The translations under genes and the position numbers were made by a program. The notes below the pieces were generated by a model. It did no database searches. It was not told the DNA's origin and saw only the letters and a list, made by a program, of their open reading frames with translations. Positions 30,689-58,306 of a stretch of 64,000 nucleotides of DNA are shown here, in pieces. The stretch is from Opitutia bacterium. GTDB lineage: Bacteria > Verrucomicrobiota > Verrucomicrobiia > Opitutales > T3Sed10-336. Positions within the stretch are counted from its first letter, which is position 1. Each line of letters opens with the position of its first letter. The DNA is taken from NCBI GenBank assembly GCA_050506795.1, contig JBJHCF010000007.1:58837-122836 (forward strand), written 5' to 3'.

Positions 30689-30760
30689 GGCCTTTTCATT
30701 CGACGGCTGTCAGCCGCATGAAAAGGCATTTGAAATCGAAAATTTGAGATTTGAAATAAA
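30689..30760 (+). repeat. Dispersed hairpin+heptamer repeat, copy 1
   Basis: GGCCTTTTCAT-18nt-ATGAAAAGGC followed by ATTTGAA ATCGAAA ATTTGAG ATTTGAA; aligns without gaps to 45341-45409 and rc 58235-58306. Confidence 0.85.
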
Positions 30761-30812
30761 CGAATGAACTTGAACGAGATATGCGCTAGAGCATTGCTGG
30801 ACTGTGAAGGTT

Positions 30813-30900
30813 CTCACACGGAGCTTACGGAGCCGGGTCCAGTAGAAATCTCCGTGTCTCTCGCCGGCCTGAGCTCGTCGAGGGCATGCCTCCGTGTGAG
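30813..30900. repeat. Nonamer-unit inverted repeat with an interrupted right arm
   Basis: CTCACACGGAG CTTACGGAG ... CTCCGTG-[~30 nt]-CTCCGTGTGAG; the outer 11 bp are perfectly inverted. Confidence 0.7.
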
Positions 30901-31009
30901 CCCAATTTTCGCTGTATTTTTTGTTTCTTCAAACGATGAACCTCCTTAACCGTGCCATTCAGGTTACCCAAAACTTGCCCTTTCGTCCGGCTCGTATAAA
31001 AAGGCCCCG

Positions 31010-31426
31010 ATGAAATCGTATCGCAAAGAACTCTGGTTTCAGGCGGCACAACGGCGGGAACTGATCAATATCACCGGTCAAGTGGAAGACTGCCTGCGCG
31101 AAAGCGGTATCCGGGAGGGTCTCGCCCTGGTGAACGCGATGCACATCTCCGCCAGTGTTTTTGTCAATGACAACGAATCCGGCCTGCACGCCGACTTCGA
31201 ACGCTGGCTGGAAAAACTCGCCCCGGAAAAACCCCATTCCCAATACGCCCACAACAAAGGGGAAGACAACGCCGACGCCCACCTCAAACGCACCATCATG
31301 GGCCGGGAAGTCGTGGTCGCGGTGACCAAAGGCCAACTCGACTTCGGTCCCTGGGAGCAGATTTTCTATGGCGAATTCGACGGTATGCGCCGGAAGCGTG
31401 TATTGGTAAAAATCATCGGAGAGTGA
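31010..31426 (+). CDS. yjbQ: YjbQ/UPF0047 family protein
   Basis: INIT, HISAS...[28 protein letters not shown]. Confidence 0.9.
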
Positions 31427-31457
31427 CCTTCCCGATCCTGTAAAACCCGCAATCAAT

Positions 31458-31955
31458 ATGTACCAATCAATTCTTATCGCACTGCTCAGCATCAGCCTGA
31501 TGGCCTGCAATCACCGGGATTCCGGTCCCTCGGACGACAACTCTGCCGAATCGTCACCTCCCGAACCCGATGCCTCGGAGGGGGTGGTGGAGGCGGAGGA
31601 CGAACCCATCGCCGCCGAACTGCGGGCCGAGCCTGGGGAAATCGACTCCTCCGACCGGATCGAGGTGCGCGTGGTCAATCACGGCGAACGAACGCTGAAC
31701 TACGGGCGTCCCGTTCGGGTGGAGCGCTGGGACGGGGAAGCCTGGCGGGAAACCGAGGAATCGCTCAACGCCGCCTGGACCATGGAACTCCTCATCCTTG
31801 CGCCGGGTGAAACCGGGGTGGCACAGCCCTGGCCCTTTCTCGCCCAACAAAACGCCGAACCCGGGTGGTACCGCTTCACCAAGGAAGTCTACGCCGAAAC
31901 CTCCTCCGGCGACGCCACCCGACTGCTGGTCCGTGCCCGGGTCCGGGTCAAGTGA
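31458..31955 (+). CDS. Lipoprotein with probable Ig-like domain
   Basis: Lipobox LMAC after a hydrophobic stretch, acidic linker, beta-rich domain (V.N.G...YG...VERW.G..W...LAPGE...PGWYRF.KEV). Confidence 0.75.
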   Translation: MYQSILIALLSISLMACNHRDSGPSDDNSAESSPPEPDASEGVVEAEDEPIAAELRAEPGEIDSSDRIEVRVVNHGERTLNYGRPVRVERWDGEAWRETEESLNAAWTMELLILAPGETGVAQPWPFLAQQNAEPGWYRFTKEVYAETSSGDATRLLVRARVRVK

Positions 31956-32005
31956 GTCTGGAGTCAAAAAACGAAAAATTGTTGTAGTTGAGGCAAGTTT
32001 TTTGG

Positions 32006-32079
32006 CACCGCAGAGGTTGGAGGGTCACAGAGAAATCATTCGGAATGTCCTTCTCTGCGGTCTTCCGCTCTCTGCGGTG
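32006..32079. repeat. Nonamer-unit inverted repeat (gene-less hairpin) between convergent genes
   Basis: CACCGCAGAGGTTGGAGGGTCACAGAGAA / TTCTCTGCGGTCTTCCGCTCTCTGCGGTG; 22/29 Watson-Crick plus 5 G-U pairs. Confidence 0.75.
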
Positions 32080-32128
32080 TCCTTATTCCTGGCCTGAGGC
32101 TTCGCCTCGTTGCTGTCTGTCGGCGATC

Positions 32129-32545
32129 TTACGGATAGCGAAGCTCGACGATTTTCACTCCGGCCGGCTCGAAATCTTTTCGGTTGGTCGTGGCCACCGC
32201 AAGGCCGTAGTGGCGCGCCGTAGCAGCGAGCAGGCTGTCTTCGCAGGAAATGGTGCGATTGTTTCGTTTCAACTCGGAGAGCAAATGTTTCCATTCCACC
32301 AGAACGGTTTCGCTCAGGGGTAGAATCGCTTGCGCGAGAGAAACGCGAAGGTCGGACAACCACGTCTCCAACTTAATTCTGAGAGCCGGATCCTCCACGG
32401 TCTCAATGCCAAAAGAAAGCTCCGCCAGTGTGACTACCGATACAAAGCTTCGATCCTCGTGGGTACGCAGCCAACGAAGCATGGCCGCGGGTGGCCGGCG
32501 TTTACTTGACGCCGAAAGAACCCCCGTGTCCAACAGGTACTTCAT
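32129..32545 (-). CDS. vapC: VapC-type PIN-domain toxin
   Basis: MKYLLDTGVLS, SVVTLAEL..G, DSLLAATA, TTNRKDF; ATGA overlap with upstream antitoxin. Confidence 0.9.
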   Translation of the reverse strand: MKYLLDTGVLSASSKRRPPAAMLRWLRTHEDRSFVSVVTLAELSFGIETVEDPALRIKLETWLSDLRVSLAQAILPLSETVLVEWKHLLSELKRNNRTISCEDSLLAATARHYGLAVATTNRKDFEPAGVKIVELRYP

Positions 32546-32790
32546 CGAAAGGGAAGATGATGACGCTCCGGGGGAGGGATCTCGCCCGGACACTTTTTGA
32601 GGATCGCAGTCAACCCTTTCGCCCCCGTTTCCAGCTCGCGGATCGGCGTCAGTAACAAACTCTGCTCACCGTCGTCCACCTCAACCAAACGGACAGCCCC
32701 GCCCTTTCGCAAACCGGCTCGTTCACGCCAGGCTTTCGGCAACTGCGCCTGCCCTTTCACCGTCACGCTCATCACGTCCACCTTCTTCAT
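32542..32790 (-). CDS. AbrB/MazE-like antitoxin
   Basis: VTVKGQAQLPKAWRERAGL..G..V swapped-hairpin motif; directly upstream of the PIN toxin. Confidence 0.82.
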   Translation of the reverse strand: MKKVDVMSVTVKGQAQLPKAWRERAGLRKGGAVRLVEVDDGEQSLLLTPIRELETGAKGLTAILKKCPGEIPPPERHHLPFR

Positions 32791-33004
32791 AATAGTAATG
32801 AATCATTACTTCGGCCTCCTTGCAAGTGGAATTGCCGGCAGATCCTCCCGCGCCAGCGAGCGTGTTGCCTCAGGCATCTGATGAGGATTATGCGAAGTCC
32901 CGTGCCTGCCGGGAGAAGCCTAATCTACATTGATCTAGCGCCTTAACCGCCGTTCGGCTTAAACCAGCAAAAAACCCCACATAACCATGAGGGTCTCGGG
33001 GCGG

Positions 33005-33076
33005 TGCGGGCGGAGGGAGTCGAACCCTCGTCTCAAGCTTGGGAAGCTCACATAATAGCCGTTATACGACGCCCGC
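33005..33076 (-). tRNA. tRNA-Gly (CCC), CCA not encoded
   Basis: GCGGGCG acceptor stem, GTAT-AACGGCTA-TTAT D-arm, TGAGC-TT-CCC-AA-GCTTG anticodon arm, GAGGG-TTCGACT-CCCTC T-arm. Confidence 0.93.
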
Positions 33077-33236
33077 GGAAACCGAAATGCCCGGTCTTGA
33101 TCCCGATTAAAGCCAGGGACGCGGTGGAAGCAAGCAAGGATCGGTTTCTCCTCGCTCATTTTTTTTCTTTCCTTGTTCCCGGGAGTCCTTTTAGAAATCA
33201 GGAACCACCCTGAAAGCCAACCCCGATCCGCCCCAG

Positions 33237-36104
33237 GTGTCATCTCCGCGAACACTTTCCCCTACCTTCGTTCTCAGCGTTTTCCTGATTCTCCTCGCTG
33301 CGCTATCCGCCGGCACCGCAATGGCCGGCCTGAGGCTGGAATCGCTGGAATCCCTTCTGCACCGGGCCACGGAGGCCTTCGCTTCCGCGGACTATGAACG
33401 GGCCGCGCAGGAGTTTCGCAACATCGAGGCCGAATACGGAGAGGAACCGGTCACCCGGGAACCGCGTTTTCTCCGCCGAGTCCTGCCTCTGCGGGGCTAC
33501 GCGGAGCTGCGCGGCGGCGATCCCGCCAGGGCGGTGCTTCACTTCAAAAGTTATCTCGATACCTTCCACTCCGATCCCCGGCCCAACGCCTTCGTTCTCT
33601 ACCATCTGGCACTGGCCAAACGTAAAACCGGTCAACCGGAGGAAGCCCTGCATCGCTTCGGAGAATACATCGAATCCTACCCGAACCGGCCCGAAGCGGC
33701 GTTCGCCCTGATGCAACAGGTGGACATCCTCAATGAAAGCGGACGAGCCGAGGAGGCCCGGGAGCGGTTGGAGAGCTTCGGAGAAAGCGACGCCCCCGCA
33801 TCCCTGCGCGCCCAGGCCCGCCTCATGGCAATTCGCCAGGCCCGCGACGCGGGGGATATCGATACCGCCGCGACTTTCCTTTTGGACCATTCCTGGGATC
33901 CGGACGTCATCCCGGAAATCGCCTCGTTTACCGCCTTGGCCATGGAGATCGGAGATCACCTCCTTGAAACCGGCGAGGCCCGCGACGCCCTGCGCGTCTA
34001 CCAATTGGTGCTTCCCCGGCGCCGGCTCCTGGAACAACAACGCCGCCGACTGGAGGCCCTGCAGGATACCTCCGTATCCGTTGGTCCGATGCAACGTCGC
34101 CACCGCGACCGTCTGAGCCGTGGTCTGCAGGCCCTGGAGAACGCCCCGGATCACACCCCCTCCTGGACCTTTCGCCGAGGCCGGGCCTTCCTGCTGGCGA
34201 AACGTCCGCGCGAGGCCTGGTTGATTTTCGAAAGCCTGGCCCTCGATGAATCCCTGGAGCCCGGCCTCCGCGAACAGGCGCACTTCCACTGGATCCTGGC
34301 CGCTCACGAACTGCGCGATTGGGAGGAGGCCCTGACCATCGCCAGGAACTTCACCCGACGTTACGACGACGCCAACCTCGCGCCGCGCGCCTTCTATCTC
34401 ATCGCCGAAGCCCATAGCGAGCAGCGACGGCATCCCGAAGCCATCGAGGTCCTGACCGACCTGATCGAACGGTTTCCGGAACACTCCCTGGCCCCGCGTT
34501 GGGTTTTTACCCGCGGATTCAACCGGGCGGTACTTGAGCGCTTTTCCGCGGCACGGGGAGATTTCAGGATGGTCCGTGATACCTATCCGGAAAGCGGTCT
34601 CACCGCCCGCGCCGACCTCTGGCATGCCCTGACTTTTCTTTTCGAGCAGGACTACGAGCGGGCTTTGCGAGAATTCAACGATCTCGCACTCACCTACTCA
34701 GACCACGAGATCACCGGAGAAATCCTGTACCGGAGAGCCGCCACACTCCACTCCATGAACAATCTGACCGACGCCCTGGCCGAGGTGACCGCCTTCGTAT
34801 CCGATTTTCCCCTGCACGAACGGCACAGCGAAGCGTTGGCCCTGAAAGGGGATATCCTGATGACCGAAGGTCAACCCGATCGCGCCATTGCCGCCTTCTC
34901 CAACGTCCCGCCGGACGCCGGCGCCATGTACCCGTACGCGGTCTTTCAAATCGGACGGATCCACCGCGCACGCGGGGACTATAATATCCTGGCCAATCAT
35001 TTTCGCGCCTACCTCGAACGATCCGACGACGAGGCGCCGCCCCGCGTCAGCGAGGCCCTCTACTGGATCGGATGGGCTCACACCCGGCTCAACCGTCCCG
35101 AGATCGCCCTGCCTCTTTTCCTGGAAACCCTCGATCTCTTCGGTAATGACCGCGAAGCCGCGGAGATCGGAACCGTGCTCAACGCTTTGGCCGATCTCCA
35201 CCAGAGTCTCCCCTCTGAAGCGACCCTGCCGGAACGCCTGCCCGTCGGCGGACGAGTCCTGCTGGCGGCTTCCGATTTCTCCGATTGGCTCCGGATCGAG
35301 CGCCGAAACGCGTTGCGCGACGACAAGCCCACCTGGTACGCCCGACTGACCCTGGCCCTATCCGATGCCGAACGTTCCGCCGGACGACCCCATGCCGCGG
35401 ACCTGCTGCTGTTCGAACTCGCAACCGAGATCCCTCCTCAAGACCTTGACGCCACCGCGCTGGGCCGTGCCGGTCATCATCTCCGCGAGCGCGGTCTCGC
35501 GACCGGGGAGACACTCCTGCTTCACCTGTTGGAGGATTTTCCCGATGCTCCGGAGTCCGCATACGCTCATTACGGACTCGCACGCATCGCCCACCAGGCG
35601 GGAGACATGGAGAACGCCCTCCTCCACTTGCGACGTTTTCGCTCCCGATTTCCCGGACACTCTCTCGCGGTGGACGCCACCCTCCTTCACGCGGATCTGC
35701 AGGCGCTTTCAGGCGACACCCTTGCCGCGCGGGCGGCCTACGAGGAAGTGCTGCGCGACCGCCGCGCCAGGGGACGGCGCCACGCCAGGGCGCTTCGAGC
35801 GTTGGCTAAAATTTACCGCGACCAGGAAGAACCGGAAAAGGCGATCGCATACTACCAGCGCATCTACACCCTGTACCAGGCCTACCCGGAACTGGTCGTC
35901 GAAGCCTATCACGAAAGCGCCCTCCTCTTTGAACGCCTGGGCGATCTGCAAGCCGCCCGGGCCACTTTCCGGGAAATGTTTACCCACGAGACCAACGAGG
36001 GAGATCCGGAACGCTGGGCGGCCGCCCGGCAGGACCTGGAGCGACTTCAACGTGAACTCCCCCCGGATTCGGCGGGCACTTTGGAAAACGAATCCACGCC
36101 ATGA
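33237..36104 (+). CDS. Large secreted TPR-repeat protein (CpoB/BamD-like repeats)
   Basis: Signal peptide; many helical repeats ending YP/FP (YPNRPEA, FPEHSLA, YPESGL, FPLHER, FPDAPE, FPGHSL). Confidence 0.8.
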   Translation: MSSPRTLSPTFVLSVFLILLAALSAGTAMAGLRLESLESLLHRATEAFASADYERAAQEFRNIEAEYGEEPVTREPRFLRRVLPLRGYAELRGGDPARAVLHFKSYLDTFHSDPRPNAFVLYHLALAKRKTGQPEEALHRFGEYIESYPNRPEAAFALMQQVDILNESGRAEEARERLESFGESDAPASLRAQARLMAIRQARDAGDIDTAATFLLDHSWDPDVIPEIASFTALAMEIGDHLLETGEARDALRVYQLVLPRRRLLEQQRRRLEALQDTSVSVGPMQRRHRDRLSRGLQALENAPDHTPSWTFRRGRAFLLAKRPREAWLIFESLALDESLEPGLREQAHFHWILAAHELRDWEEALTIARNFTRRYDDANLAPRAFYLIAEAHSEQRRHPEAIEVLTDLIERFPEHSLAPRWVFTRGFNRAVLERFSAARGDFRMVRDTYPESGLTARADLWHALTFLFEQDYERALREFNDLALTYSDHEITGEILYRRAATLHSMNNLTDALAEVTAFVSDFPLHERHSEALALKGDILMTEGQPDRAIAAFSNVPPDAGAMYPYAVFQIGRIHRARGDYNILANHFRAYLERSDDEAPPRVSEALYWIGWAHTRLNRPEIALPLFLETLDLFGNDREAAEIGTVLNALADLHQSLPSEATLPERLPVGGRVLLAASDFSDWLRIERRNALRDDKPTWYARLTLALSDAERSAGRPHAADLLLFELATEIPPQDLDATALGRAGHHLRERGLATGETLLLHLLEDFPDAPESAYAHYGLARIAHQAGDMENALLHLRRFRSRFPGHSLAVDATLLHADLQALSGDTLAARAAYEEVLRDRRARGRRHARALRALAKIYRDQEEPEKAIAYYQRIYTLYQAYPELVVEAYHESALLFERLGDLQAARATFREMFTHETNEGDPERWAAARQDLERLQRELPPDSAGTLENESTP

Positions 36105-37105
36105 AACCCACCCCCAAACTTATTGATACCTCCACGGCGCTCCTGGTTTTATTTCTCCTGGTCGCACCAGCCCTTCCGGTCGTCTCCCGGTATCAAGAGC
36201 CGGCGACCGTAACCCTCGAAAACGGCCGGCAGTACACCGGAATCCTCGCCGGTCTGGCCGACGAGCGTCTGGCCTTGATTGTGCCGGACGGAGCAGGTGA
36301 AGCCGAATACCTCCTGCCAATCGAGCAGATCACGAAGGTGGATCTGCCCGATGAAGACCTCGCAACAAACGCACTGCTTCTGTACCAGGAAAACAACTAC
36401 GAGCAGGCAATTCCTCTGCTGGAAACAATCTATCGGAATCGCCTTCCCTACCTTGCACTTTTGGCCCCGAACCAGGAGACACCACTCGTCGCCCTGGTAA
36501 AACTATATTCGGCGACGGGAGCCCGACTCGACGCGGTCATCACCGCGCGTCGACTCAGTCGCGATATACGGAATCCGGCCCATCGCGAAGAACTGGCGGC
36601 CATCAAACTGACCGGATACCTTGACCTCGACTTGATTGAACGCGCCGTCTCCGACGGACGCGCCTGGTGTGCCCGGCAGGACCGGCATCCCGATTCCGCG
36701 CTGGGATGGTATGTGCTGGCTGAAGTCGCTTTGCGGGAGGAACGGCTCGAAGATGCCCTGTGGATTGCCCTGCAACCGATTGCGTTCTCATCGGCTTCCC
36801 CCATGTCGTACCTGGAAGCGGCCTATGCGGCAGCCCTCCGCGCCTACCAAAAGACGGGCGAAACGGACCTGGGAATCGAGCTCTACCGGGAAATGAGGGA
36901 CCGCGATTTGCCTCTTTCCGAACTCAGCCCCTCCGCCGGCGAAACGATCGCCTACTTCGCCGAGCTTTGGGAGGCGGAGAGACAGGCGTCCCCGAATGAG
37001 GAGGAAACCGGCCCGCTCCTTGATCCTCGTCCGCCGCGAGCGGACCTCAATCTGCCTCTGCGCGAAGTCCGCCGACTACTCCTCGCCTTGCCGGAGTTCG
37101 AATAA
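36101..37105 (+). CDS. Secreted hypothetical protein with TPR-like helices
   Basis: Hydrophobic N-terminus, small beta domain (VTLENGRQYTG), helical repeats; ATGA-coupled to the TPR gene. Confidence 0.65.
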   Translation: MKPTPKLIDTSTALLVLFLLVAPALPVVSRYQEPATVTLENGRQYTGILAGLADERLALIVPDGAGEAEYLLPIEQITKVDLPDEDLATNALLLYQENNYEQAIPLLETIYRNRLPYLALLAPNQETPLVALVKLYSATGARLDAVITARRLSRDIRNPAHREELAAIKLTGYLDLDLIERAVSDGRAWCARQDRHPDSALGWYVLAEVALREERLEDALWIALQPIAFSSASPMSYLEAAYAAALRAYQKTGETDLGIELYREMRDRDLPLSELSPSAGETIAYFAELWEAERQASPNEEETGPLLDPRPPRADLNLPLREVRRLLLALPEFE

Positions 37106-37146
37106 AACCCATCCAACAATCGACCCTTGCATCAACGCCAACCGCT

Positions 37147-37917
37147 ATGAAACCTACCTCGATTCGATTCCCCTTCCTGGCAACCCTCTTCCTCTCGGCA
37201 AGTTTACCGCTGCAGGCGGCCGACGCCGCGGCGACCGGCGGGCAGCTCAGTCTATGGAGCCTGCTGCAACAGGGAGGCTGGGCCATGTATCCTCTGGCGG
37301 CCTGTTCGATTGCCATGTTTTTCCTGATCTTTCACTGCGTCCGGGAAACCGCGCCGGCAAGGTTCATACCACCCAATGCCCTTCCCCACCTGGCATCGCT
37401 GCTGGAGTCGCGTCGCATCGAGGAAACCATGGCCCACCTGGATGCCACACCCGGCGCACTGTCCCGAGCGCTCCGTCCGGCATTGCAGAAAGCACGTCCC
37501 GACCTCGCCGATGCCGGCAAGGAACAGGTGGAATTCGCGCTGGCCGAAGCGCTCGAGCACGAGGAGAACGGAATCTCGCAATGGATCACCTACCTGAACG
37601 TGGTCGCCAGTGTCGCCCCCATGATCGGCCTGCTCGGCACGGTCAGCGGAATGATAGGGGCCTTTCAAACCATATCGCTTGGCGGCATGGGGCGTCCGGA
37701 GTTGCTCGCCGGCGACATCGGCCAGGCCCTGGTCACCACCGCCACCGGACTGACCATCGGTATTCCCGCGATGATCGCCTATTTCGTCCTGCGCAACCGC
37801 CTGGAAAACCGCATGCTCGAAACCACCCGCGGCGCCACCGAACTCATCGACACCCTGGCCGCCGGATACGCCTTCGAAGGAGAAGCCGAGGCACAGGAAG
37901 AAATCGAGCGGATTTGA
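37147..37917 (+). CDS. MotA/TolQ/ExbB proton-channel family protein
   Basis: QGGWAMYPL, APMIGLLGTVSGMIGAF, IGQALVTTATGL.IGIPA. Confidence 0.93.
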   Translation: MKPTSIRFPFLATLFLSASLPLQAADAAATGGQLSLWSLLQQGGWAMYPLAACSIAMFFLIFHCVRETAPARFIPPNALPHLASLLESRRIEETMAHLDATPGALSRALRPALQKARPDLADAGKEQVEFALAEALEHEENGISQWITYLNVVASVAPMIGLLGTVSGMIGAFQTISLGGMGRPELLAGDIGQALVTTATGLTIGIPAMIAYFVLRNRLENRMLETTRGATELIDTLAAGYAFEGEAEAQEEIERI

Positions 37918-37935
37918 TCCGAACGCCTAAAAAGA

Positions 37936-38343
37936 ATGAATCACCACGAAGAGCACAAAGTGCACGAAGAAATACAATTCGAAGCGCTTTCACACCGTGT
38001 GATCGGTTGCGCAATTGAAGTGCATCGCGTTCTTGGACCTGGCCTGCTGGAATCGTCCTACCAAAGATGCCTGAGTCATGAATTGGAACTAAAAGGGATC
38101 GAGCATCTGTGCGAAACACCACTTCCCATCGAATACAAAGAAACTTCCCTGGAATGCGGTTATCGCGTTGATTTATTGGTTGCCAATGCTCTGATCATCG
38201 AGCTGAAAAGCGTAAGGAAAATCGACCCCATTCACGAAGCCCAGATTCTGACCTACATGAAGTTATCCGGCGTTCGGACAGGACTTATTTTGAACTTCAA
38301 TGTATCGAAACTCAAAGAGGGAATAAAACGCTACGTCCTCTAA
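37936..38343 (+). CDS. GxxExxY protein (PD-(D/E)XK nuclease-like)
   Basis: LGPGLLESSYQ (GxxExxY), YRVDLLV..IIELKSV, HEAQILTY, GLILNF. Confidence 0.93.
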   Translation: MNHHEEHKVHEEIQFEALSHRVIGCAIEVHRVLGPGLLESSYQRCLSHELELKGIEHLCETPLPIEYKETSLECGYRVDLLVANALIIELKSVRKIDPIHEAQILTYMKLSGVRTGLILNFNVSKLKEGIKRYVL

Positions 38344-38381
38344 TCCCCTACTCTTCGTGCCCTTCGCGCTCTTCGTGGTGA
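37941..38381. mobile_element. Putative inverted-repeat-bounded GxxExxY element
   Basis: Arms 37941-37970 and 38352-38381 are 27/30 inverted-identical and made of 9-nt CACGAAGAG-like units. Confidence 0.55.
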
Positions 38382-38405
38382 AAACGAATCTGGGACCAGC
38401 CGGTC

Positions 38406-42158: not shown

Positions 42159-42181
42159 GCAGGAGGGGAAAGTCGAATGGT

Positions 42182-45313: not shown

Positions 45314-45340
45314 GGCAAGGGGAATTTTGGTCCGCCTCAG

Positions 45341-45409
45341 GGCATTTTCATTTGGCCTCTGAAGGCCGCATGAAAAAGCATTTCAGATCAAAAATTTGAA
45401 ATTTGAGAT
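45341..45409 (+). repeat. Dispersed hairpin+heptamer repeat, copy 2
   Basis: GGCATTTTCAT-TTGGCCTCTGAAGGCCGC-ATGAAAAAGC-ATTTCAG ATCAAAA ATTTGAA ATTTGAG. Confidence 0.85.
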
Positions 45410-45481
45410 TCTTCGCCAGGGAATCCGGATCAAAGCCCGCAAATAAAATGGCCGCGGTGTCCGCCTTCGCTCTTCGCAAGA

Positions 45482-45745
45482 TCAGAAATGCCTGCGAGCG
45501 AATTCTCGTCCGGAACCGGACTTCATGTAACGCTCGAATTCACGTGCTTTTCGGTAACATCGAAATCGGACCACCGTTTCGAACTCCCATGGCCGGTATT
45601 TCGCCGTATGCGACACCGCGCCGTGGTTGTGACGTCGAAGGCGCTCATTCAGATTTACCGTATAACCCGTATAACGTCGTTCTCTGTCGCTCAAACTGAT
45701 CAAAATGTAGACGTAATAACAGGGGCTCGTCGCGGGGTCAGCCAT
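45482..45745 (-). CDS. Small GIY-YIG nuclease family protein
   Basis: YVYIL...YTGYT.NL..RL..HN.G...T..YRPW......A...E.Y.KSG.GR. Confidence 0.88.
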   Translation of the reverse strand: MADPATSPCYYVYILISLSDRERRYTGYTVNLNERLRRHNHGAVSHTAKYRPWEFETVVRFRCYRKAREFERYMKSGSGREFARRHF

Positions 45746-45908
45746 TGGTCGAGGAGTTCTTGTTTTTCTGCTTGGAGAGGGGTGATTTTCGGCTGGCTGG
45801 CCAAGCCGTAGCCTCGCAGCTTTCGGCAGCAGGGGTCCGCCTGCGCTCCGCTGACGCGGAGTCTCCGGCGTGACAGCCTTCGCTCTTCGCGTTGCTGCGA
45901 GCGAAGGC

Positions 45909-45984
45909 TGGTGGAGCCGATCGGGATCGAACCGACGACCTCGTCATTGCGAACGACGCGCTCTTCCAACTGAGCTACGGCCCC
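45909..45984 (-). tRNA. tRNA-Ala (CGC), CCA encoded
   Basis: GGGGCCG..CGGCTCC-A-CCA with G3:U70, TAGCTCAGTTGGAAGAGC D-arm, anticodon CGC, GGTTCGATCC T-loop. Confidence 0.95.
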
Positions 45985-46183
45985 AATTGCCTAAACCCGC
46001 AGATTGAGAGAAATCGGGAAGCGAGTAAATCACGAATTTCGCCACTCCGCCCCGAAACCGCCACCAGCGCCGATTTTTCCATCGGAAACCGCTTAATGGT
46101 CTTGTGTTTGGCGGGAGTTTCCGCTTTTCTCCTGCTTGGAGACGTACTCCCATCACTGATTCCAGCAAATCGACTCAACTCGT

Positions 46184-46735: not shown

Positions 46736-46939
46736 TTTTGAGCGAAAGCGCCGGGCATTACCGCAATCGACCCCCGGCGGTGCGGCAATTCAGCGTCCCT
46801 CGGGCAGTCGTGTCCGGCCATGATTCCGTGCGGGTATATCCCGGGATGCCCCCGTCGTTCAAACGCGCCGTTCCGGACTCTCGGTATTCGGCTATTCTTC
46901 GCCCATTTTTGCTTTACCTGGGATTTTGATTTCCGCCTA

Positions 46940-47485: not shown

Positions 47486-47496
47486 CACCACAGAGC

Positions 47497-50570: not shown

Positions 50571-50682
50571 CGTGCCGTCCGCGTCCAAACGGGTATGAAG
50601 AAAATCCTCATTGAACGGCCGTCCGATCCCGCAATGATGTGGGGGGTGATCGCCCGGACAAACCTGGCGCGACCGCTGGCAC

Positions 50683-51693
50683 ATGACATTTACGGAACTG
50701 GCATTCTCCACCGATGGACGGATTGATCGGGCCACCTTCTGGAAAACCCTGGTGGTTCTGATTCTAATCGGCTGGATCGGCTACCTGCTTGCTTTTCAAG
50801 CCGGCGGCTGGGCGCAACCGATCGGATTCCTGGTACTCGCCGCTTTGATAGGGCCGATCGTGACCGTCTGCGCCAAACGCTGGCACGATCTCGGCCGCTC
50901 CGCCTGGTGGGTATTGCTTTTGCTGGCGCCCGGGATCGGACTGCTGATCACCCTGGCGATCCTCGGCTTCCGGGCGGGTGAAAACGGTCCCAATGATTTC
51001 GGCTACCCGATGGCCGCCGAGGATCGACATCCCGGCCGGAGGACGGGCGGAACCACATGGCGTCCGGAAACCCGCCTCCTTTCGGAAGGGGAGGCGGACC
51101 TGATGGCCATGCTGGCCAAGCTGGCCAAATGCGACGGCCCGATCACCCCGGCGGAAATCGGCACGGTAAATCGTTTTCTGCATGAGGACCTCGCCCTGGG
51201 AAACGAAGCGTGCCAGGAAGCGATCCGCACCTTCCGCATGGCCCGGGATTCCCACGCCACTTTCGAAATCCACCTCCGTCGCTATCAAAGGCGACACGCC
51301 GAAGACCCCCACCTCCTGGCCAGGGCGGTGGATCTGCTTTCCCTGCTTGCCGTGTCCGACGGCAGGTTGACGCGGCGCGAAGCGCTTTTTCTGGATCTGG
51401 CGGTGGCGGTTTTCGGGGTCAGCAGCGCCCGGTATTTCGAATGCAAGTACGGCGAACCCGGGCCGCGCGTCGACGCCACCACAGTCCCGGAGGAAAAGGA
51501 ATTCGCCCGCACCCTCGGACTGAGCGGCCGGGTCTCGCGCGGAGAAATTCGCAAAGCCTACCGGGGTCTCGTCGGTCAATATCATCCGGACAAGGTCTCC
51601 CACCTCGGACCCCGGTTGAAAGAAGTCGCCGACCAGGAGATCAAAAAGATCAACCAGGCCTACGAGTATTTCCGGAAAAAATACGACCTGTAA
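50683..51693 (+). CDS. DUF805 - TerB-like - DnaJ-domain fusion (DjlA-like)
   Basis: GRIDRATFW..KRWHDLGRS..N.FG (DUF805); LAKCDG.I...E and LAVSDG...E (TerB); KAYR....YHPDK...INQAYE (J domain). Confidence 0.82.
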   Translation: MTFTELAFSTDGRIDRATFWKTLVVLILIGWIGYLLAFQAGGWAQPIGFLVLAALIGPIVTVCAKRWHDLGRSAWWVLLLLAPGIGLLITLAILGFRAGENGPNDFGYPMAAEDRHPGRRTGGTTWRPETRLLSEGEADLMAMLAKLAKCDGPITPAEIGTVNRFLHEDLALGNEACQEAIRTFRMARDSHATFEIHLRRYQRRHAEDPHLLARAVDLLSLLAVSDGRLTRREALFLDLAVAVFGVSSARYFECKYGEPGPRVDATTVPEEKEFARTLGLSGRVSRGEIRKAYRGLVGQYHPDKVSHLGPRLKEVADQEIKKINQAYEYFRKKYDL

Positions 51694-51755
51694 GATTGGT
51701 GTGGGATGCAGGCGGGGCCAACGGACCGCCGGGTTCGCCCTCCGCGCCGCGGTCC

Positions 51756-51792
51756 AAAAAAATGCCGCCCGGCGCCGAATGGGCCGGGCGGC
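51756..51792 (-). terminator. Terminator after the Hsp20 pair
   Basis: Minus strand GCCGCCCGGC-loop-GCCGGGCGGC-ATTTTTTT. Confidence 0.75.
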
Positions 51793-51857
51793 TCGTCACT
51801 TCTCTCTTCCTTTGTCCCCCGAAGCAGCCTGCCTTCAGGGGACGGTTACGGATTGCA

Positions 51858-52262
51858 TTATTCGATCTTGATCTTGCGGCGCTGAGCCTGTTTGCCCTTC
51901 GGAAGGGTCAGGCGCAGCACGCCGTCCTTCAACTGGGCATGGACCTTTTCGGTTTCCAGCCCTTCCGGCAGACTCAGGTGCAGCCTGTAGTCCACGTCCG
52001 CGGTTTCAGACCAAACGGGAGTCCAATCGTCGGGTTTTTTCCAGGAACGAGCTGCGGTCAGCACCAGTTCCCGCCCCTCCACCGAGAGATTCAGGTCATC
52101 CCTGCGCACGCCGGGCAGGAGAATTTCCAGCCCGAACGCGTCGTCTGATTCCTTAATCTCATAATCGGGAGCAATCACCAGACGCTCGGTCACGCCGCGA
52201 TTCACTGGACGGGCTGCCAACTGTTCGTCCGGACGCGGTATCAGCTTTTTTCCAAAGGCCAT
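51858..52262 (-). CDS. Hsp20/alpha-crystallin small heat-shock protein
   Basis: LPGV, A.LKDGVLRLTLPK, RKIKI; GGAGG RBS. Confidence 0.9.
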   Translation of the reverse strand: MAFGKKLIPRPDEQLAARPVNRGVTERLVIAPDYEIKESDDAFGLEILLPGVRRDDLNLSVEGRELVLTAARSWKKPDDWTPVWSETADVDYRLHLSLPEGLETEKVHAQLKDGVLRLTLPKGKQAQRRKIKIE

Positions 52263-52297
52263 AACGTTTCCCTCCTTTCGAAGTTGGATGTTTTGCT

Positions 52298-52777
52298 TTA
52301 TTTGCCTTCTTCAATCATCACCCGCCGGGCTCGAGCTTCCTCTCGCTTGGGCAGAGTGACGGTCAAGACGCCGTCCTCGTACGCGGCCTTCACATGGTCT
52401 TCCGCAATCGCTTCCGGCAGACGCACGCTGCGGCGGACTTCGAAGGAACGCTCTTCCTCGCCGTCATCACCAAAACCCCGGCGAGATCCGGAGACCGTTA
52501 GGATGCCACGTTCCATTTCGACATTGATGGCGTCCTTTTCCATGCCCGGAAGATCCATCCGCACATAGAAGTTTTCACCGTCCTCGTAAAGGTCGGTGGC
52601 CGGGCGCCCCGACAGCAAACGATCACTCCGATAGCCGAAGAAATCGTCGTCGAAAGCAGAATTAAACAACCGGTCGAAATTCCGGGCCCAATCGCTCAAC
52701 CGCGGCCAACCGCTGTGAAAGAACGGGTCGCGATGGGAAAACAAGGCTCCGGGCAGATTGCTCTCAATCAGTCTCAT
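52298..52777 (-). CDS. Hsp20/alpha-crystallin small heat-shock protein
   Basis: PATDLYE, DLPG, RSVRLP, AAYEDGVLTVTLPK; AAAGGAGG RBS. Confidence 0.92.
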   Translation of the reverse strand: MRLIESNLPGALFSHRDPFFHSGWPRLSDWARNFDRLFNSAFDDDFFGYRSDRLLSGRPATDLYEDGENFYVRMDLPGMEKDAINVEMERGILTVSGSRRGFGDDGEEERSFEVRRSVRLPEAIAEDHVKAAYEDGVLTVTLPKREEARARRVMIEEGK

Positions 52778-52854
52778 AAACAAACACCTCCTTTCGCATG
52801 AGTTTAATGGTCTGATTCGGGCTCACCACCAATTGGCAAACCCACTTAATAAAA

Positions 52855-52871
52855 AGCTTATGGCATGCCAG
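52855..52871 (-). promoter_or_regulatory. Candidate sigma-54 (-24/-12) promoter for the Hsp20 genes
   Basis: Minus strand CTGGCATGCCATAAGCT has GG-N10-GC spacing, ~78 bp upstream of the ATG; AAGC instead of TTGC at -12. Confidence 0.5.
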
Positions 52872-52974
52872 AGAACTGATTTCACAGGTGACTGAGATTC
52901 GCCAACTTGCGAAACCGGTCCAGGCGCGCCTTGGAGCGGTTTGACACACCAAATCCCATACGCAGTGTCAAGAT

Positions 52975-53030
52975 GACTCAAAGGACTCAGGTCGGACGGG
53001 TCGGTCGGATCGGTCCGATCCGACCGATCC
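52975..53030. repeat. Short-period repeat with a perfect 13-bp palindrome
   Basis: GACTCA-AAG-GACTCA then TCGGTCGGATCGG-T-CCGATCCGACCGA (53001-53027). Confidence 0.7.
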
Positions 53031-53087
53031 CTCTTCCCCCCTGCGAGCTTGACGCCCGGCGTCGATTGGGGATTGGATAACCCGCTT

Positions 53088-54599
53088 ATGGCAAGCCAGT
53101 CCGCATCCGCTTCGTCTCCCACCATGGAAACCATCGTGGCTCTGTGCCGCCGGCGAGGTTTCATTTTCCAATCGTCGGAAATCTACGGAGGGGCGAACGG
53201 TTTTTTTGATTACGGACCGCTGGGCGCGGAGCTGCGGCGCAACATCAAAGAAGCCTGGTGGAAGGACTTCGTGCAGCGGCGCGACGACATCGTCGGCCTC
53301 GACTCCTCCATCATTCACCATCCAAAAACCTGGGAAGCTTCCGGCCACGTGGACAACTTCACCGACCCCCTGGTCGACTGCAAGGCCTCCAAGCAGCGCT
53401 TTCGGGCGGACCAGTTGTTCTTCGCGCCGGTGGTGGTGAACGGGGAAATCATCGGCTACGTCTCCGGCCTGGAAAGCGACCGCACGGAAAGCGAGTTGCA
53501 GGCGGCGGCGGAGAAACTGAAACGCAAGAAGGCCGTGCAGGGAGAGCTGGAACCCCTGCGCTTACGGGACTTTACCGAGGCGACTCCCGAGGAGATTCCA
53601 CTGGTTCCTTCGCCCGCCACCGGCGAGCCCGGGAGCCTGACGCCCCCGCGATCGTTCAACATGATGTTCGAGACCCACATCGGGGCGTTGCGGGACGGCT
53701 CCTCCGTGGCCTACCTGCGTCCGGAAACGGCCCAGGGCATCTTCATCAATTTCCGCAACGTGGTGGATTCCGGCCGGGTCAAAATTCCCTTCGGCATCGC
53801 CCAGATCGGCAAAGCCTTCCGCAACGAAATCAATCCGCGAAACTTCATCTTCCGGTCGCGGGAATTCGAGCAGATGGAAATCGAGTATTTCATCGCTCCG
53901 GACGACAACTGGCAGGCACGCCACCGCGAGTGGATTGACGCCGGCGTCGAATGGCTCGAGTCCATCGGCATCCCCCGGCAGGCCATCAGCGAATACGAGC
54001 ACCCCAGGGAGAAACTTTCCCACTATTCCAAAGGGACGGTGGACCTCATGTTCGCGTTTCCCTTCGGCGTGCAGGAACTTTGGGGGTTCGCCGCCCGGGG
54101 AGACTACGATTTAACCCAGCATCAGAAATTCAGCGGCAAACCGATGGAGATCTTCGACGAGGCCTCGAAGAGCAAATTCATCCCTCACGTCATCGAACCC
54201 AGCGTCGGTGTCGACCGCATTCTCCTCGCCGCCCTTTGCTCCGCCTACGCCGAGGAGGAAGTTGAAGGCGAGAAACGAACCGTGCTGCGTCTCAGTCCCC
54301 GCATCGCCCCGGTGAAAATCGCGGTGTTCCCGTTGGTGAAGAACAAGCCTGAACTGGTGGCTGCCGCGGAAAACCTTTATCGTTCGTTGCAGAGAAAGTA
54401 CGCCGCGTTCTGGGATACCTCCGGCGCCATCGGAAGGCGCTACCGGCGTATGGATGAAATTGGGACGCCGTTCTGCGTGACCGTCGATTTCCAGACCCTG
54501 GAGGACGGAACCTTCACTCTGCGCGACCGGGACAGCATGGAGCAGAAACGCATTCGCAACGAGGAGCTTTTCCCGCTATTGGAGGACGCGGTGGATTGA
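53088..54599 (+). CDS. glyQS: Glycine--tRNA ligase, alpha2 (eukaryote/archaea-type)
   Basis: [62 protein letters not shown]. Confidence 0.95.
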
Positions 54600-54907
54600 A
54601 TTCCCGGAACCGGAATTCAGTCCTTCACCGGTCGGTGTGACAAATTCACATTATTTTTAACCCGCGCCTTCCGGCGCCGTTCGGGCCCTCCAAGGCTGGA
54701 AGGCGCTTAATCAAAGGGACGTGAGACACACGACCCCGCTGAACCGAACGTAATCGCGGCCCGCCGGGATCCCGCTTTCCACTTGACCGGAAAGCAAGTG
54801 TTCGTGAAGCTTTTGACCTGTATCGGGATCCCGAACACCCGTTGCTTCGAGCTGCGGGAGTCTTTGTCGGCCCACGATTCCGGGCAGAGATATTTCTACA
54901 CTCTCAG

Positions 54908-55798
54908 ATGGCGCGTAAAATCAGCTTCCTCAATTATAAGGGCGGGGTGGGGAAAACCTCCCTGATTGTCAATCTCGCCTCTTGTCTGGCAATGCAGGGC
55001 AAGCGGGTCCTTCTTTGCGATTTGGACACCCAATCCAACGCCAGCATTTGGCTCTTGCGCCTCGATCGCTGGAACAAAATCAACAGTTCCGGAGAAGGGG
55101 CGGTTTATTCCATCTTCAATCCGGGCAACGCTACCCTGGCCGACTGCCTGGTTCGCGACGTGGCGGAGGACAAAAACGGCGACAAGCTCATTCCGGGGCT
55201 CGATCTGATTCCGACCACTTTCAACCTGGTGGATCTGGAAAGCGACCTGGAAAGCGGGAACCCTGAGCAACCCCCGTACTCGATTTTCCACGAGCAACTT
55301 CAAGCGCTGGAAGACCATTACGATTACATACTCTTCGACTGCCCGCCGAATATTCTGCGCGCATCCCAATGCGGTGTCTACAGCAGCAACGAAATCTACG
55401 TGCCCGCAAACCCCGACGCCCTGAGCCTGGTCGGATTCACTCTTCTGGTGGAAAAGTTACAGAAATTCCACCGCGCTTCCGCCAGCTTTCGCACCAGCGG
55501 CATGGGAGTCCCGGCCGAGATCCGCGGGATTATCTTCAATTCGATCAAGGGCAACGTGGATATCGAAGTCCCCAAAATCCGAATGCAACTTCGGTTGAAC
55601 CAGTTCCGAGCCCAGAAGAAGGTATCCGCCCAGGCCAAGATTTTCAGCGCCCAGGTTCGCGACGCCAACATCGTCCGGCGCGCCGTCACCCTGGGCCTTC
55701 CGGTGGCGCTGGTCGGCGAACAACGCACCGACGCCGAAAGCGTCGTCACTGATTATCAGGAAGTCGCCCAGGAACTCATCCGGCACGAACCCAATTAA
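54908..55798 (+). CDS. ParA/Soj-family ATPase (orphan)
   Basis: Deviant Walker A NYKGGVGKT, DLD.Q.NAS, YDYILFDCPP; no parB adjacent. Confidence 0.9.
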   Translation: MARKISFLNYKGGVGKTSLIVNLASCLAMQGKRVLLCDLDTQSNASIWLLRLDRWNKINSSGEGAVYSIFNPGNATLADCLVRDVAEDKNGDKLIPGLDLIPTTFNLVDLESDLESGNPEQPPYSIFHEQLQALEDHYDYILFDCPPNILRASQCGVYSSNEIYVPANPDALSLVGFTLLVEKLQKFHRASASFRTSGMGVPAEIRGIIFNSIKGNVDIEVPKIRMQLRLNQFRAQKKVSAQAKIFSAQVRDANIVRRAVTLGLPVALVGEQRTDAESVVTDYQEVAQELIRHEPN

Positions 55799-55819
55799 CC
55801 CGCCACGCCCAAACGTACC

Positions 55820-56827
55820 ATGTCTGAATTCGACGACGACAAGATCGAAAAACACCCGTCTCTTCACTGGGACAAGTTGCGCGCGAGCTTCCAGAGTTCG
55901 ATGCTGGTCGACACTCGCCTTTCCAGCCTGGCGGAAAGTCTGGACACGGAAAACTGGCCGATCAAAGGCAAAGAGGAAACCCCCGCGAAGTACGTTGATC
56001 TTACCTTCGACGAACTGCGGGAAACTCCTGAAATGCAGGCCAACCCCGAGCGGATACGGCTATTGATGGACATTCTGGAGGGCACTCTGGCGTTCGACGA
56101 TCCTTTCGGGGAAATGGTCCAGGCCGAGGAAGCCAACGCCTCCGGCGACAACGAAGTGCTGAAAAACCTCGGCCGCCTGCAAATCGCTCCCGAGTTTCCC
56201 CTGGCGCTGATTAATCTCTCCCCGGAATCAAAATCACTCTGCGCCAATCAGAAACTGAATACGCTGGAGGAATTCGCTGCGTTTTCGCAGAACATGGCGC
56301 AACACATTGTGCTGGCGGGTGATTTTCGCCGTCTGCTCAACGCGCTGATCCATGTCGACGAAAAAACGATCGCCGGTTACCTTCCCTTCCGGCCGGGAAA
56401 CAAGGGCCTGCACTTGCCGGAAGCGATCGCCCTGCTGATCGATCCGCTTTCCACGGAAGAGCGCCTGGGCTTATACCGCCGTTACGGTGGCCAATTGGGA
56501 ATCGAGGAACAGGGCCTGGCCGAAAAGGCCGGACGCCAACGCCTGAACGACGTCGAAGCCGACCTGCGCGAGCAATTGCAGCCGGTTTTTGCCTGGTTTA
56601 CCCAGGAACGGGACGATCTGCGTTCCGCCCTGGATTACGGTCAGCCCATCGACCGGTTTTTCGTCCCGATCAACGACCCGGTGAAGGAAACCATCGCGGT
56701 CCGCCTGGTTTCCGACACCCTGAAACGCGCGCCCGCACGCGGCGGCCTTTCCTCCGTTGAAACCGCCACCTCCACCCCGCGTCCCGGGGGCCTCGGCGCC
56801 CTGTGGAGAAAATTGCGCGGCAAGTAG
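55820..56827 (+). CDS. Hypothetical protein, possible alphaCTD/HhH-like segments and C-terminal amphipathic helix
   Basis: Long ORF 21 bp after parA; resemblance to RpoA-CTD and sigma region 4 judged by eye only. Confidence 0.7.
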   Translation: MSEFDDDKIEKHPSLHWDKLRASFQSSMLVDTRLSSLAESLDTENWPIKGKEETPAKYVDLTFDELRETPEMQANPERIRLLMDILEGTLAFDDPFGEMVQAEEANASGDNEVLKNLGRLQIAPEFPLALINLSPESKSLCANQKLNTLEEFAAFSQNMAQHIVLAGDFRRLLNALIHVDEKTIAGYLPFRPGNKGLHLPEAIALLIDPLSTEERLGLYRRYGGQLGIEEQGLAEKAGRQRLNDVEADLREQLQPVFAWFTQERDDLRSALDYGQPIDRFFVPINDPVKETIAVRLVSDTLKRAPARGGLSSVETATSTPRPGGLGALWRKLRGK

Positions 56828-56872
56828 CGACCGGATTATTCCCGGCCGTACACCTTTCATTCACACTGATTA

Positions 56873-57508
56873 TTGGCTGAAATCCTGATGGTGCCCATTG
56901 AGCAGAGACCGCTTCCACCGCTCCGACGAAGGCTCAGTCTGACCGGTTTGTCGGACTACTCGCGCGAACTCTCGACCGAATCACAAAGGTCGGTGGAACT
57001 GATTCGCTCGCTCACCCGTTCCCCCTGGGAAGAAGCACGGGCCCTGAGCAAACGCGAGCTCGAAGCCCTCGACGCCTCGTTGCGGGAACTGGAAGCGACC
57101 CTTAACGAACGCGAAGAAGCCTTGCGGGCCTCCGAATCCAAGCTGCAGGAAAAGGAACGTGACCTTTGGGAAACCGAAGCACTGCTGAAGGCCCGCGAAG
57201 CAATCCTCAAAACCACACAGCACAACACGGCGCAACCGCCTCCGGGCGAACCCTCGAGCGAAGCCAGAAAGGCGCTGGAGACCTGGAAACAGGAACTGGA
57301 AAAGCAGGAGCGTTCCCTGCATGAAGCCCGGTCCGCCCTCCGGGAACGCGAAGAATTTCTCGACTCAAGCGAAAATACTCTCTTCGAGAAATTTCAGGAA
57401 CAGCAGGAGCAGGAAACCATTATCGAACAGCGCCAGGAGGAACTCGATGCCCGGGAGAAGGCAATCGAACGCCGCGAAAAGGAGCTCGAATCGAAACAAG
57501 GAGAATAA
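56873..57508 (+). CDS. Coiled-coil protein (Glu/Arg/Lys-rich)
   Basis: Heptad pattern LRELEATLNEREEALRASE, two coiled-coil blocks separated by QPPPGEP; start uncertain. Confidence 0.72.
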   Translation: MAEILMVPIEQRPLPPLRRRLSLTGLSDYSRELSTESQRSVELIRSLTRSPWEEARALSKRELEALDASLRELEATLNEREEALRASESKLQEKERDLWETEALLKAREAILKTTQHNTAQPPPGEPSSEARKALETWKQELEKQERSLHEARSALREREEFLDSSENTLFEKFQEQQEQETIIEQRQEELDAREKAIERREKELESKQGE

Positions 57509-57554
57509 CCCCCTCCCCCACGCCCCTCTCACCTCGCCCCACGCACCACCCCCG

Positions 57555-58235
57555 TCACCTCTTAACCTTCTCATACTCGGGCGGCTTGATGACCCAAGGG
57601 CCGGGGTTCGCCGCCGGGCGGGTCAGGGTTCCCTGGAAAAACCAGGGCGCGGCGGCGGAAAGATCGTAATCGAGGGGCCGGGTTTCCACCGGCGCCGGCC
57701 GCAACGGACCGGCCTCCTCCGGGCGCCACAAAGGGATTTCACAAGCGGCGAGTTCCTCCTCGCTCAACCGGCGCGGGGCTTGAATTTCACCGCCGGAGGT
57801 GACCTCCACAAAATTCCAATGCCCGCGCCGGGCGTCGGAACAAAGGGCGAACGGCGGCGTCTCGCCTGCATCCAGAAGCCGATGAGCCAGCAGGTCGAGG
57901 TTGCGGTACACCCGGCAGGGCAAATCCTCCCCTCCCGGCCGGCGCCGCCAGGTACGCAGGGCCATGGCCGCGATGCGTGATCCGAGGATCGAGCCCGGCC
58001 CCTCGCAGTAGAAAAACCCGCTCAGCGCGTCAAGCCGGACGCCCGAACGGCGCAAAGCGGTTTCGACCGCCGGAAACAAGGTCTCCGCCGCGGGTCCGTC
58101 ACGGCGCTCCAAAGCCAGCCAGGCGTCGCGGCACAGGACTCCCGCGTACACCGACGGCAGGGCGGCGTCGAGCAGGAGCCACGCCGGTTCCCCGGCTCTC
58201 CATTTCGAATCGGTAACTTGTTCGATCTCGTCCAT
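57555..58235 (-). CDS. tsaB: TsaB-like tRNA t6A biosynthesis protein (divergent)
   Basis: LLLDA, E.LFP.VE, CEGPGS..G.RI, DARR, C-terminal P.Y. Confidence 0.72.
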   Translation of the reverse strand: MDEIEQVTDSKWRAGEPAWLLLDAALPSVYAGVLCRDAWLALERRDGPAAETLFPAVETALRRSGVRLDALSGFFYCEGPGSILGSRIAAMALRTWRRRPGGEDLPCRVYRNLDLLAHRLLDAGETPPFALCSDARRGHWNFVEVTSGGEIQAPRRLSEEELAACEIPLWRPEEAGPLRPAPVETRPLDYDLSAAAPWFFQGTLTRPAANPGPWVIKPPEYEKVKR

Positions 58236-58306
58236 TTATCTCAGATCTGAAATTGTCGATTTGGAACGTCCTTTCATCGGGCTTACAGCCGGCAGATGAA
58301 AAGGCC
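58235..58306 (-). repeat. Dispersed hairpin+heptamer repeat, copy 3
   Basis: rc = GGCCTTTTCAT-CTGCCGGCTGTAAGCCCG-ATGAAAGGAC-GTTCCAA ATCGACA ATTTCAG ATCTGAG ATAAA. Confidence 0.82.

Follow-up and report, generated by a model that had tools for sequence, protein, structure and literature searches.

The window analysed here is a stretch of 64,000 nucleotides from an Opitutia bacterium of the order Opitutales (assembly GCA_050506795.1, contig JBJHCF010000007.1; C7:58837-122836 in the draft genome labelled G000, 4.94 Mb, 58.9% G+C), and it contains three copies of a dispersed repeat built around a hairpin. The first copy lies beside a divergently transcribed gene for an ABC-ATPase-like protein, the second near a small GIY-YIG gene, and the third between tsaB and tig. 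The first-pass annotation had described a unit of about 70 bp with an 18-nt insert, inner stems and four heptamers, and had read it as a repetitive extragenic palindrome (REP)-like mobile repeat or a structured non-coding RNA family. The three positions, the gap-free alignment (about 75 columns) and this internal architecture were all reproduced. The pattern TTTTCAT-N16-20-ATGAAA has five matches in the window, representing these three loci only (two on both strands), with 0.00 expected from 100 shuffles. The favoured explanation of the repeat as a whole is a different one, to which we assign a probability of about 0.85: a non-autonomous MITE (miniature inverted-repeat transposable element), derived from an insertion sequence (IS) of the ISAs1 family and inserted at a position set by promoters.

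The real unit measures 119 bp rather than 70 bp, exactly so in 23 of the 36 copies with both termini, the remainder ranging from 116 to 122 bp (three of these 36 rows are duplicate records). Its left border is CACGGCTTTTTCA and its right border AAAAGACCGTG, each the inverted copy of the other; read inward, both ends follow CACGG(T)CTTTTT..ATTTG, with CACGG or CAGGG at the tips. The inverted ends extend over approximately 12-18 nt. On structures that we set ourselves, as for all pairing counts below, the 12-nt terminal pairing holds in 69% of cells (21 copies), compared with 35-43% when the partners are slid. The flanks carry a 10-bp target-site duplication (TSD), identical at all ten positions in 11 and at seven or more in 22 of the 36 copies; when flanks are paired across different copies, the rate is 1.1%. 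There is no conserved open reading frame (ORF) in the element; only a subset of copies has a 7-codon frame, which terminates at the stop codon of the parent. The copies fall into two subfamilies that have the left 85 nt in common and differ in the right part, the first and third window copies belonging to the rarer type B. The repeat thus combines small size without coding capacity, terminal inverted repeats, a TSD of constant length and dispersed copies with filled and empty sites, as expected of a MITE. The 10-bp duplication and the CA(C/G)GG tips fit the ISAs1 family, whose duplications measure 8-10 bp and whose tips are CAGGG-like; a stretch at the centre of the element may resemble an IHF core.

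Two further observations concern the element borders. A CCGG-rich motif beyond the ends was considered as an extension of the inverted repeat and rejected, as it is the TSD. Two near-identical variants in the source genome (G000:C25:19213-19298 and 31275-31367) carry an unrelated stretch of 25 nt in place of the left end and half of the hairpin; the right flanks of the two also resemble each other, so that a larger segment seems duplicated, and the same contig has a run of N near 33.6 kb.

The expectation of a multi-copy, genome-wide family was borne out. A profile built from seven copies with an exact hairpin identified 32 copies in G000 (E<1e-4), and a covariance model, R1, identified 31. 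The model was run on 21 genomes including G000, 12 of them from the same Opitutales family and nine from other families of the order. Within the window's genus, two further genomes have 25 and 12 matches; a second genus has genomes with 17, 2 and 2, and a single genome of a third has 2. Seven of the 12 genomes of the family therefore carry the element, and there are zero matches in the five other genomes of the family and in the nine other families. Among public genomes, all matches to the exact hairpin pattern are in Opitutales, Opitutia or Puniceicoccaceae metagenome-assembled genomes.

Mobility, which had also been suggested, is demonstrated by the TSDs together with filled and empty alleles at orthologous sites. 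A copy with a perfect duplication in the relative G001 corresponds to a single decamer in G000 (C8), and a site filled in G009 lacks the element in G000 (C49). The third window copy is present in both G000 and G001, where the region is 93% identical, and is absent from the same site in G002, where tsaB and tig are adjacent; it was not seen in G009 or G006, in which the spacers have diverged. Only two flank clusters are common to G000 and G001. The median mutual identity is 95.4% for thirteen 119-bp copies of G009 and 66.4% for eight copies of G000, from which we conclude that the G000 copies are old relics and those of G009, a genome of a sister genus, the product of a recent burst.

The proximity of the hairpin end to a -35-like hexamer of a divergent gene, pointed out in the first-pass annotation, was correct and proved to be the key to the element. 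We pooled 93 non-redundant copies from G000 and its relatives and read their flanks (72 left, 60 right) outward from the element ends; promoters here and throughout are predicted from sequence. The triplet TTG starts exactly at position +30 in 26 of the left and 11 of the right flanks, with a background of 2.0% and 1.9% per position, respectively (binomial p of 7e-26 and 1e-8), and at no other position does the count exceed five. Merging orthologous flanks leaves the counts nearly as they were (25/70 and 11/59). The layout outward from the element is constant: positions 1-10 are the duplication, 11-29 are unconserved, 30-34 read TTG(A/C)C, and further out there is an excess of T at +53, of A at +54 and of T at +58. 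This consensus reads as a sigma-70-type promoter with a 17-bp spacer. TAnnnT is present in 11 of the 37 flanks with TTG at +30, and 19 have at least four of the six TATAAT bases at a spacer of 16-18. The corresponding rates among all intergenic TTG[AC]C sites of G000 (n=3327) are 4.0% and 9.0%, so that a -10-like signal accompanies the targeted hexamers at 5-7 times the rate of all intergenic TTG[AC]C words. By a permissive test, an ORF starts 3-190 nt after the -10 in all 37 flanks. In 13 of them the distance is only 3-13 nt, pointing to frequent leaderless or near-leaderless mRNAs in these Opitutales.

The age of the copies and the state of the empty sites bear on when this spacing arises. 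Among young copies, those with a TSD of 9/10 or better, TTG occupies +30 in 15 of 18, including nine of 11 in G009; among older copies it does so in 10 of 31, a lower rate that is as expected if small indels blur the distance. Taking all G009 copies, five left ends and five right ends face the promoter. In G000, the empty allele of the G001 insertion consists of the decamer, 19 nt, TTGTTC, 17 nt and CATATT, and the TTGACC hexamer upstream of tig is kept in the empty G002 allele as well as in G009 and G006. In the full-length IS of G004 described below, TTG begins at +30 outward of the left end and is followed, 17 nt on, by a -10-like hexamer and, 12 nt after that, by an ATG. From these data together it follows that the element takes up its position at the time of insertion and does not bring the promoter with it; since the empty alleles already hold the predicted promoter, insertion is non-random and aimed at promoters.

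By our own crude gene calls, the hairpin-side gene diverges from the element in 29 of the 32 G000 copies and a single copy lies between convergent genes. The neighbours are unrelated genes (tig, purH, accD, trmD, tatA, glycosidases, PEP-CTERM proteins and others). One copy, G000:C44:22771-22897, has the +30 TTG in either flank: it went in between two back-to-back promoters, the -35 hexamers of which had originally been separated by 48 bp.

The ends of the element point to its source family. A search with the ISAs1 model NF033564 identified in G004, a member of a sister genus, an IS of about 1.9 kb. Its right end coincides with the MITE right end at 19 of 19 nt, a stretch that includes the stop codon of the transposase. 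The left end starts CACGGTCATTTTATTT and is, by our count, approximately 65% like that of the MITE. A frameshift splits the transposase gene. Its parts code for a DruA/Mom-like N-terminal domain, for DDE_Tnp_1_assoc (PF13808; 48 bits against a cut-off of 32.3) and for the two halves of NF033564, which score 53.7 and 57.6 bits and, owing to the split, both stay under the 70-bit cut-off. Located at L131 (G004:C184), 1423-2832 on the minus strand, this transposase has its DruA/Mom-like domain matched by PF14236 with 64 bits, and the domain is a candidate for the part that chooses the target. Since the ends are shared with an ISAs1-type element, we regard the MITE as a deletion derivative of an IS of this type. 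The interior of such an IS would have been lost, while both inverted ends, the hairpin close to the left end with the A/T-rich heptamers, and the final transposase codons including the stop were kept. A transposase supplied in trans would cut the target with a 10-bp stagger and so give rise to the 10-bp duplication. Members of the ISAs1 family are recognised by NF033564 and by PF13808 with PF01609; in contrast to them, the MITE has no transposase of its own.

Searches for an autonomous element with MITE ends found none in G000, G001 or G009. The three PF01609 matches in G000 lack the MITE end motifs, and the PF01609 element on C6, considered as a parent, was rejected for its different inverted repeats and a protein that is IS1182-like by our reading. 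With strict end motifs no parent element was seen in G000, and loose motifs were too noisy; partial G000 copies considered as pieces of a parent turned out to be decayed MITEs beside ordinary genes. ISAs1 fragments in G002 and G011 gave no end match at the G011 locus or at the two of three G002 loci that were searched. In metagenome contigs, the 20-nt left end matched four stretches, three MITE copies and one chance match, with no autonomous element among them; in viral contigs, a 17-nt end motif matched 13 stretches, none of which fitted the family model.

Several observations weigh against an ISAs1-derived, promoter-directed MITE. About half of all copies have no TTG at +30, and three of the 18 young copies are off, at +31, +23 and +20. 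Within the window, only the third copy fits +30 exactly. The promoter hexamer of the first is at +27, with a C9 run in between in which slippage may account for the 3-nt offset, and the second has no clear promoter at +30 on either side. In the window's genus, left ends face promoters more often than right ends (17/47 vs 4/40, p=0.005), for which symmetric targeting gives no account; the second genus has 7/21 left and 6/18 right ends facing promoters. The bias possibly reflects asymmetry between the inverted repeats or differential loss over time. Purifying selection against insertions within genes could add to the -10 enrichment. As to the parent, the sole full-length relative is frameshifted, with sub-cut-off NF033564 halves, a left end of limited likeness and unmatched flanking decamers, and no transposase with MITE ends was found in G000, where NF033564 gives 0 matches.

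For the promoter-directed MITE, the geometry suggests how a site might be selected. The target decamer lies 19 bp upstream of the -35 TTG. The tip of the element therefore comes to rest at a distance of 29 bp from the -35, near -65 and slightly beyond the stretch that RNA polymerase covers, and the core promoter stays intact together with its own upstream decamer. The transposase or a partner protein would measure from the promoter, either through contact with RNA polymerase sitting at the promoter, the mechanism suggested for TnGBS, or by sensing the -35 sequence itself. The outcome would be a safe landing place, where neither genes nor core promoters are broken. As a tentative proposal, ISAs1-family transposases may have evolved promoter homing independently of the Mutator-like elements TnGBS and ISLre2, docking on promoter-bound RNA polymerase, perhaps via the DruA/Mom-like N-terminal domain of the G004 element, and cutting a 10-bp staggered target centred near -60, so that the MITEs would mark the native promoters of uncultured bacteria to the base.

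Polymerase contact would fit the -10 enrichment, with direct recognition of the -35 word as a serious competitor. In that alternative, the transposase itself would recognise a TTGAC-like word at a set distance from its cut site, for example by a helix-turn-helix, with no part played by RNA polymerase, and the confinement of copies to real promoters would stem solely from the loss of insertions beside TTGAC words within genes. In the flank, strong conservation is confined to TTG(A/C)C, and either end of the element can face the hexamer, as expected for a word in the target DNA. Against this stands the excess of -10-like signals over intergenic TTG[AC]C words, which is already apparent in a set dominated by young copies, together with the finding that no copy with a well-kept TSD lies inside a called gene (G000 only). 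We consider word reading possible, if somewhat doubtful.

It is improbable that the spacing arose from selection after random insertion, with the element acting as a regulatory module that carries an activator site or insulator at its end. Class I activators can act at about -65, where the tip lies, and the excess of hairpin ends facing promoters in the window's genus, seen both in the flank counts and in gene orientation, suggests differential retention. However, the G009 copies, 95% identical and with perfect duplications, are already base-exact in nine of 11 cases and turn either end promoter-ward; the full-length IS has the same spacing; and single-base precision from random insertion needs very many lost insertions.

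The reading of the repeat as a structured non-coding RNA family or cis-regulatory leader, with the hairpin and heptamers as functional core, is very unlikely. The hairpin itself is real: it is stable in all 16 copies folded (forward strand), its pairing is kept in 82.6% of cells in 21 copies and in 86.8% in 81 distinct copies aligned by fitting to the covariance model, none of 500 shuffles reaches the observed pairing, and U-G wobbles occur on one strand only (58/81 at one pair). Related sequences beat shuffles even without structure, however, as the tool itself warns. The stem covariation reported in the first-pass annotation stands only in that pairing is kept: covariation is weak, double changes are concentrated nearly entirely in one pair (UA 48, CG 15) and track the subfamilies, and the differing inner stems are subfamily signatures in shifted register. 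For 21 copies RNAalifold returned no consensus structure. At gathering thresholds, Rfam matched only two tRNAs in the whole window, and an E-value search with the second copy gave chance-level scores only (15 bits vs a cut-off of 50; 11 vs 145). An RNA function is further opposed by the TSDs and presence-absence polymorphism of copies, by the unrelated neighbour genes, by a location upstream of promoters and outside the neighbour's transcript, and by young copies, in which the one end or the other may be turned to the promoter. The hairpin and the heptamers most likely go back to end sequences of the parent element, where their role may have been in transposase binding, in bending or in controlling the transposase gene; an RNA function of their own is improbable.

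The proposal of a REP or REPIN-type palindrome moved by a REP-associated tyrosine (RAYT, Y1) transposase can practically be dismissed: the element contains a palindrome and G000 has 16 Y1_Tnp matches, but by coordinate comparison none of them is near any copy, the right end is shared with an ISAs1-type IS, and a 119-bp length, inverted termini and 10-bp duplications speak against it, as the HUH/Y1 enzymes that move REPs make no such duplications.

The Y1_Tnp matches (IS200/RAYT-like) are on C35, C36, C62, C27, C68 and other contigs, many of them inside frames of about 320 aa. They might belong with a second repeat family of G000, about 190 bp long, which consists of a long palindrome CTCACACGGAG ... 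CTCCGTGTGAG with conserved outer arms and is represented in the window at approximately 30791-30985 on the plus strand. This family is the more abundant one, with at least 50 further copies in G000 (e.g., C1:57433, C3:1071 and C7:50381) and 116 matches to its end motif on both strands. Its copies abut decayed MITEs at C3:104958 and C3:131812, and another truncates the first window copy.

The features at the three window loci are collected in Table 1. The first copy keeps the left inverted repeat, the hairpin, the four heptamers and part of the B-type right half. Its right terminus is missing, the copy being cut off near 30790 by the second repeat family; the sequence beyond matches the end of the CTCACACGGAG-type repeat, in agreement with the earlier remark that another repeat type adjoins. 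The ABC-ATPase-like gene has its ATG 11 nt past a TGACAG hexamer that is -10-like.

Table 1. Features at the three window copies of the MITE (window positions; promoter elements are predictions).
Feature	Position	Strand	Remarks
-35-like TTGACA of the divergent ABC-ATPase-like gene	30654..30659	-	27 nt outward from the left end of copy 1
Copy 1, subfamily-B MITE, truncated	30686..30790 (end approximate)	+	100.4 bits vs R1
Copy 2, left TSD	45328..45337	+	8/10 identical to 45457-45466
Copy 2, complete 119-bp subfamily-A MITE	45338..45456	+	144.4 bits vs R1, best match to the family model; both termini found
Copy 2, right TSD	45457..45466	+	8/10 identical to the left TSD
Copy 3, complete 119-bp subfamily-B MITE between tsaB and tig	58191..58309	-	82.9 bits vs R1
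ATG opening the longest tsaB ORF	58233..58235	-	inside copy 3
Target decamer at the left end of copy 3, promoter side	58310..58319	+	
-35-like TTGACC of the predicted tig promoter	58339..58344	+	starts exactly at +30 from the left end of copy 3 (decamer + 19 nt)
-10-like hexamer of the predicted tig promoter	58362..58367	+	17 nt after the -35

A small stand-alone GIY-YIG gene (87 aa; 45482-45745, minus strand) indeed lies beside the second copy, its stop being 26 nt away, and is followed by a tRNA gene (45912-45984, minus strand). The GIY-YIG gene has a single relative in G000, distant and broken (C6:93353) and with no copy nearby, so that the linkage is confined to one of 32 copies. Flanking decamers of the third copy are no longer alike, which marks it as an old insertion. 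On its promoter side, a start codon in the tig frame lies within about 30 nt of the predicted -10. On the other side, the copy does adjoin tsaB, as had been noted, but it does not merely abut the start of the gene: the longest tsaB ORF (57555..58235, minus strand; 226 aa) begins inside the element, and its first 15 codons are element-derived. The ATG within the copy is presumably the start actually used. As G002 has no element at this site, tsaB must start elsewhere in that genome.

The anatomy of the element is ordinary for an ISAs1-derived MITE; its distinguishing feature is the base-exact placement upstream of promoters. The closest counterparts are the TnGBS conjugative transposons, the ISLre2 family and the ISKra4 group. 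Their transposases are Mutator-like DDE enzymes (p-MULT 3 and 4), and they go in upstream of the -35 of sigma-A/sigma-70 promoters, at a distance that is fixed (Guerillot et al. 2014, PMC3942029). The same work places the junction of repeat and genome 13-17 bp from the -35, relates near-symmetric inverted repeats to insertion in both orientations, with orientation linked to asymmetry of the repeats, and, drawing a parallel with Ty3 of yeast, proposes that the initiation complex of RNA polymerase is contacted (PMC3942029). Shared with these elements are the fixed distance upstream of the -35, the intact promoter and the use of both orientations. The differences lie in the distance, 29 bp here (the 10-bp duplication plus 19), and in the transposase, which here is ISAs1-type (DDE_Tnp_1_assoc and an IS4-like DDE domain) and belongs to a superfamily unrelated to the Mutator-like one. 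Hence the repeat appears to work like the promoter-homing Mutator-like elements, yet is no member of them. Promoter homing is called unusual among prokaryotic transposases in PMC3942029, the text of which contains no occurrence of ISAs1. Our literature search found no paper on promoter-directed insertion for ISAs1, and the published bacterial precedent for promoter homing is limited to Mutator-like elements. In the accessible part of a survey (PMC9208149), ISAs1 appears only among families with a non-uniform distribution, over-represented in convergent contexts.

Other elements resemble the repeat in single respects. IS1202-family elements (ISAjo2 and relatives) insert 5 bp from the XerC side of dif/pdif in one orientation (PMC10132070). 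A fixed small distance from a protein-binding site is common to both systems; the landmark, a recombination site there, and the transposase family differ. The Correia elements of Neisseria duplicate TA, compared with 10 bp here, and the promoter of the present element sits in the flank and predates the insertion. Correia elements and MITEAba12 are likewise small and non-coding, with inverted ends, duplications and many copies mostly just upstream of genes (PMC10969869; PMC6382973). The position of Correia elements upstream of genes is explained in the review by promoters carried inside them (PMC10969869). A safe-haven mode of integration at a set distance, via the initiation machinery, is shared with Ty3 of yeast, a eukaryotic retroelement that targets RNA polymerase III genes (cited in PMC3942029). 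Transposons aimed at safe spots near promoters are well known in yeast, and bacterial reports have been limited to one transposase superfamily. Another eukaryotic retroelement, TRE5-A of Dictyostelium, also integrates in a safe haven at a set distance upstream of RNA polymerase III genes.

A second, unrelated family with a 29-bp ruler would, if true, mean that promoter homing has evolved more than once, and two systems could then be compared for the part of the transcription machinery that is read. For genome annotation, a conspicuous "structured repeat" is explained without a new RNA. In the case of tsaB, a transposon may have supplied the start of a gene. Well-kept copies would point to native promoters in the phylum Verrucomicrobiota, and in Opitutales in particular, and the 37 flanks already yield the consensus TTG(A/C)C-N17-TAnnnT.

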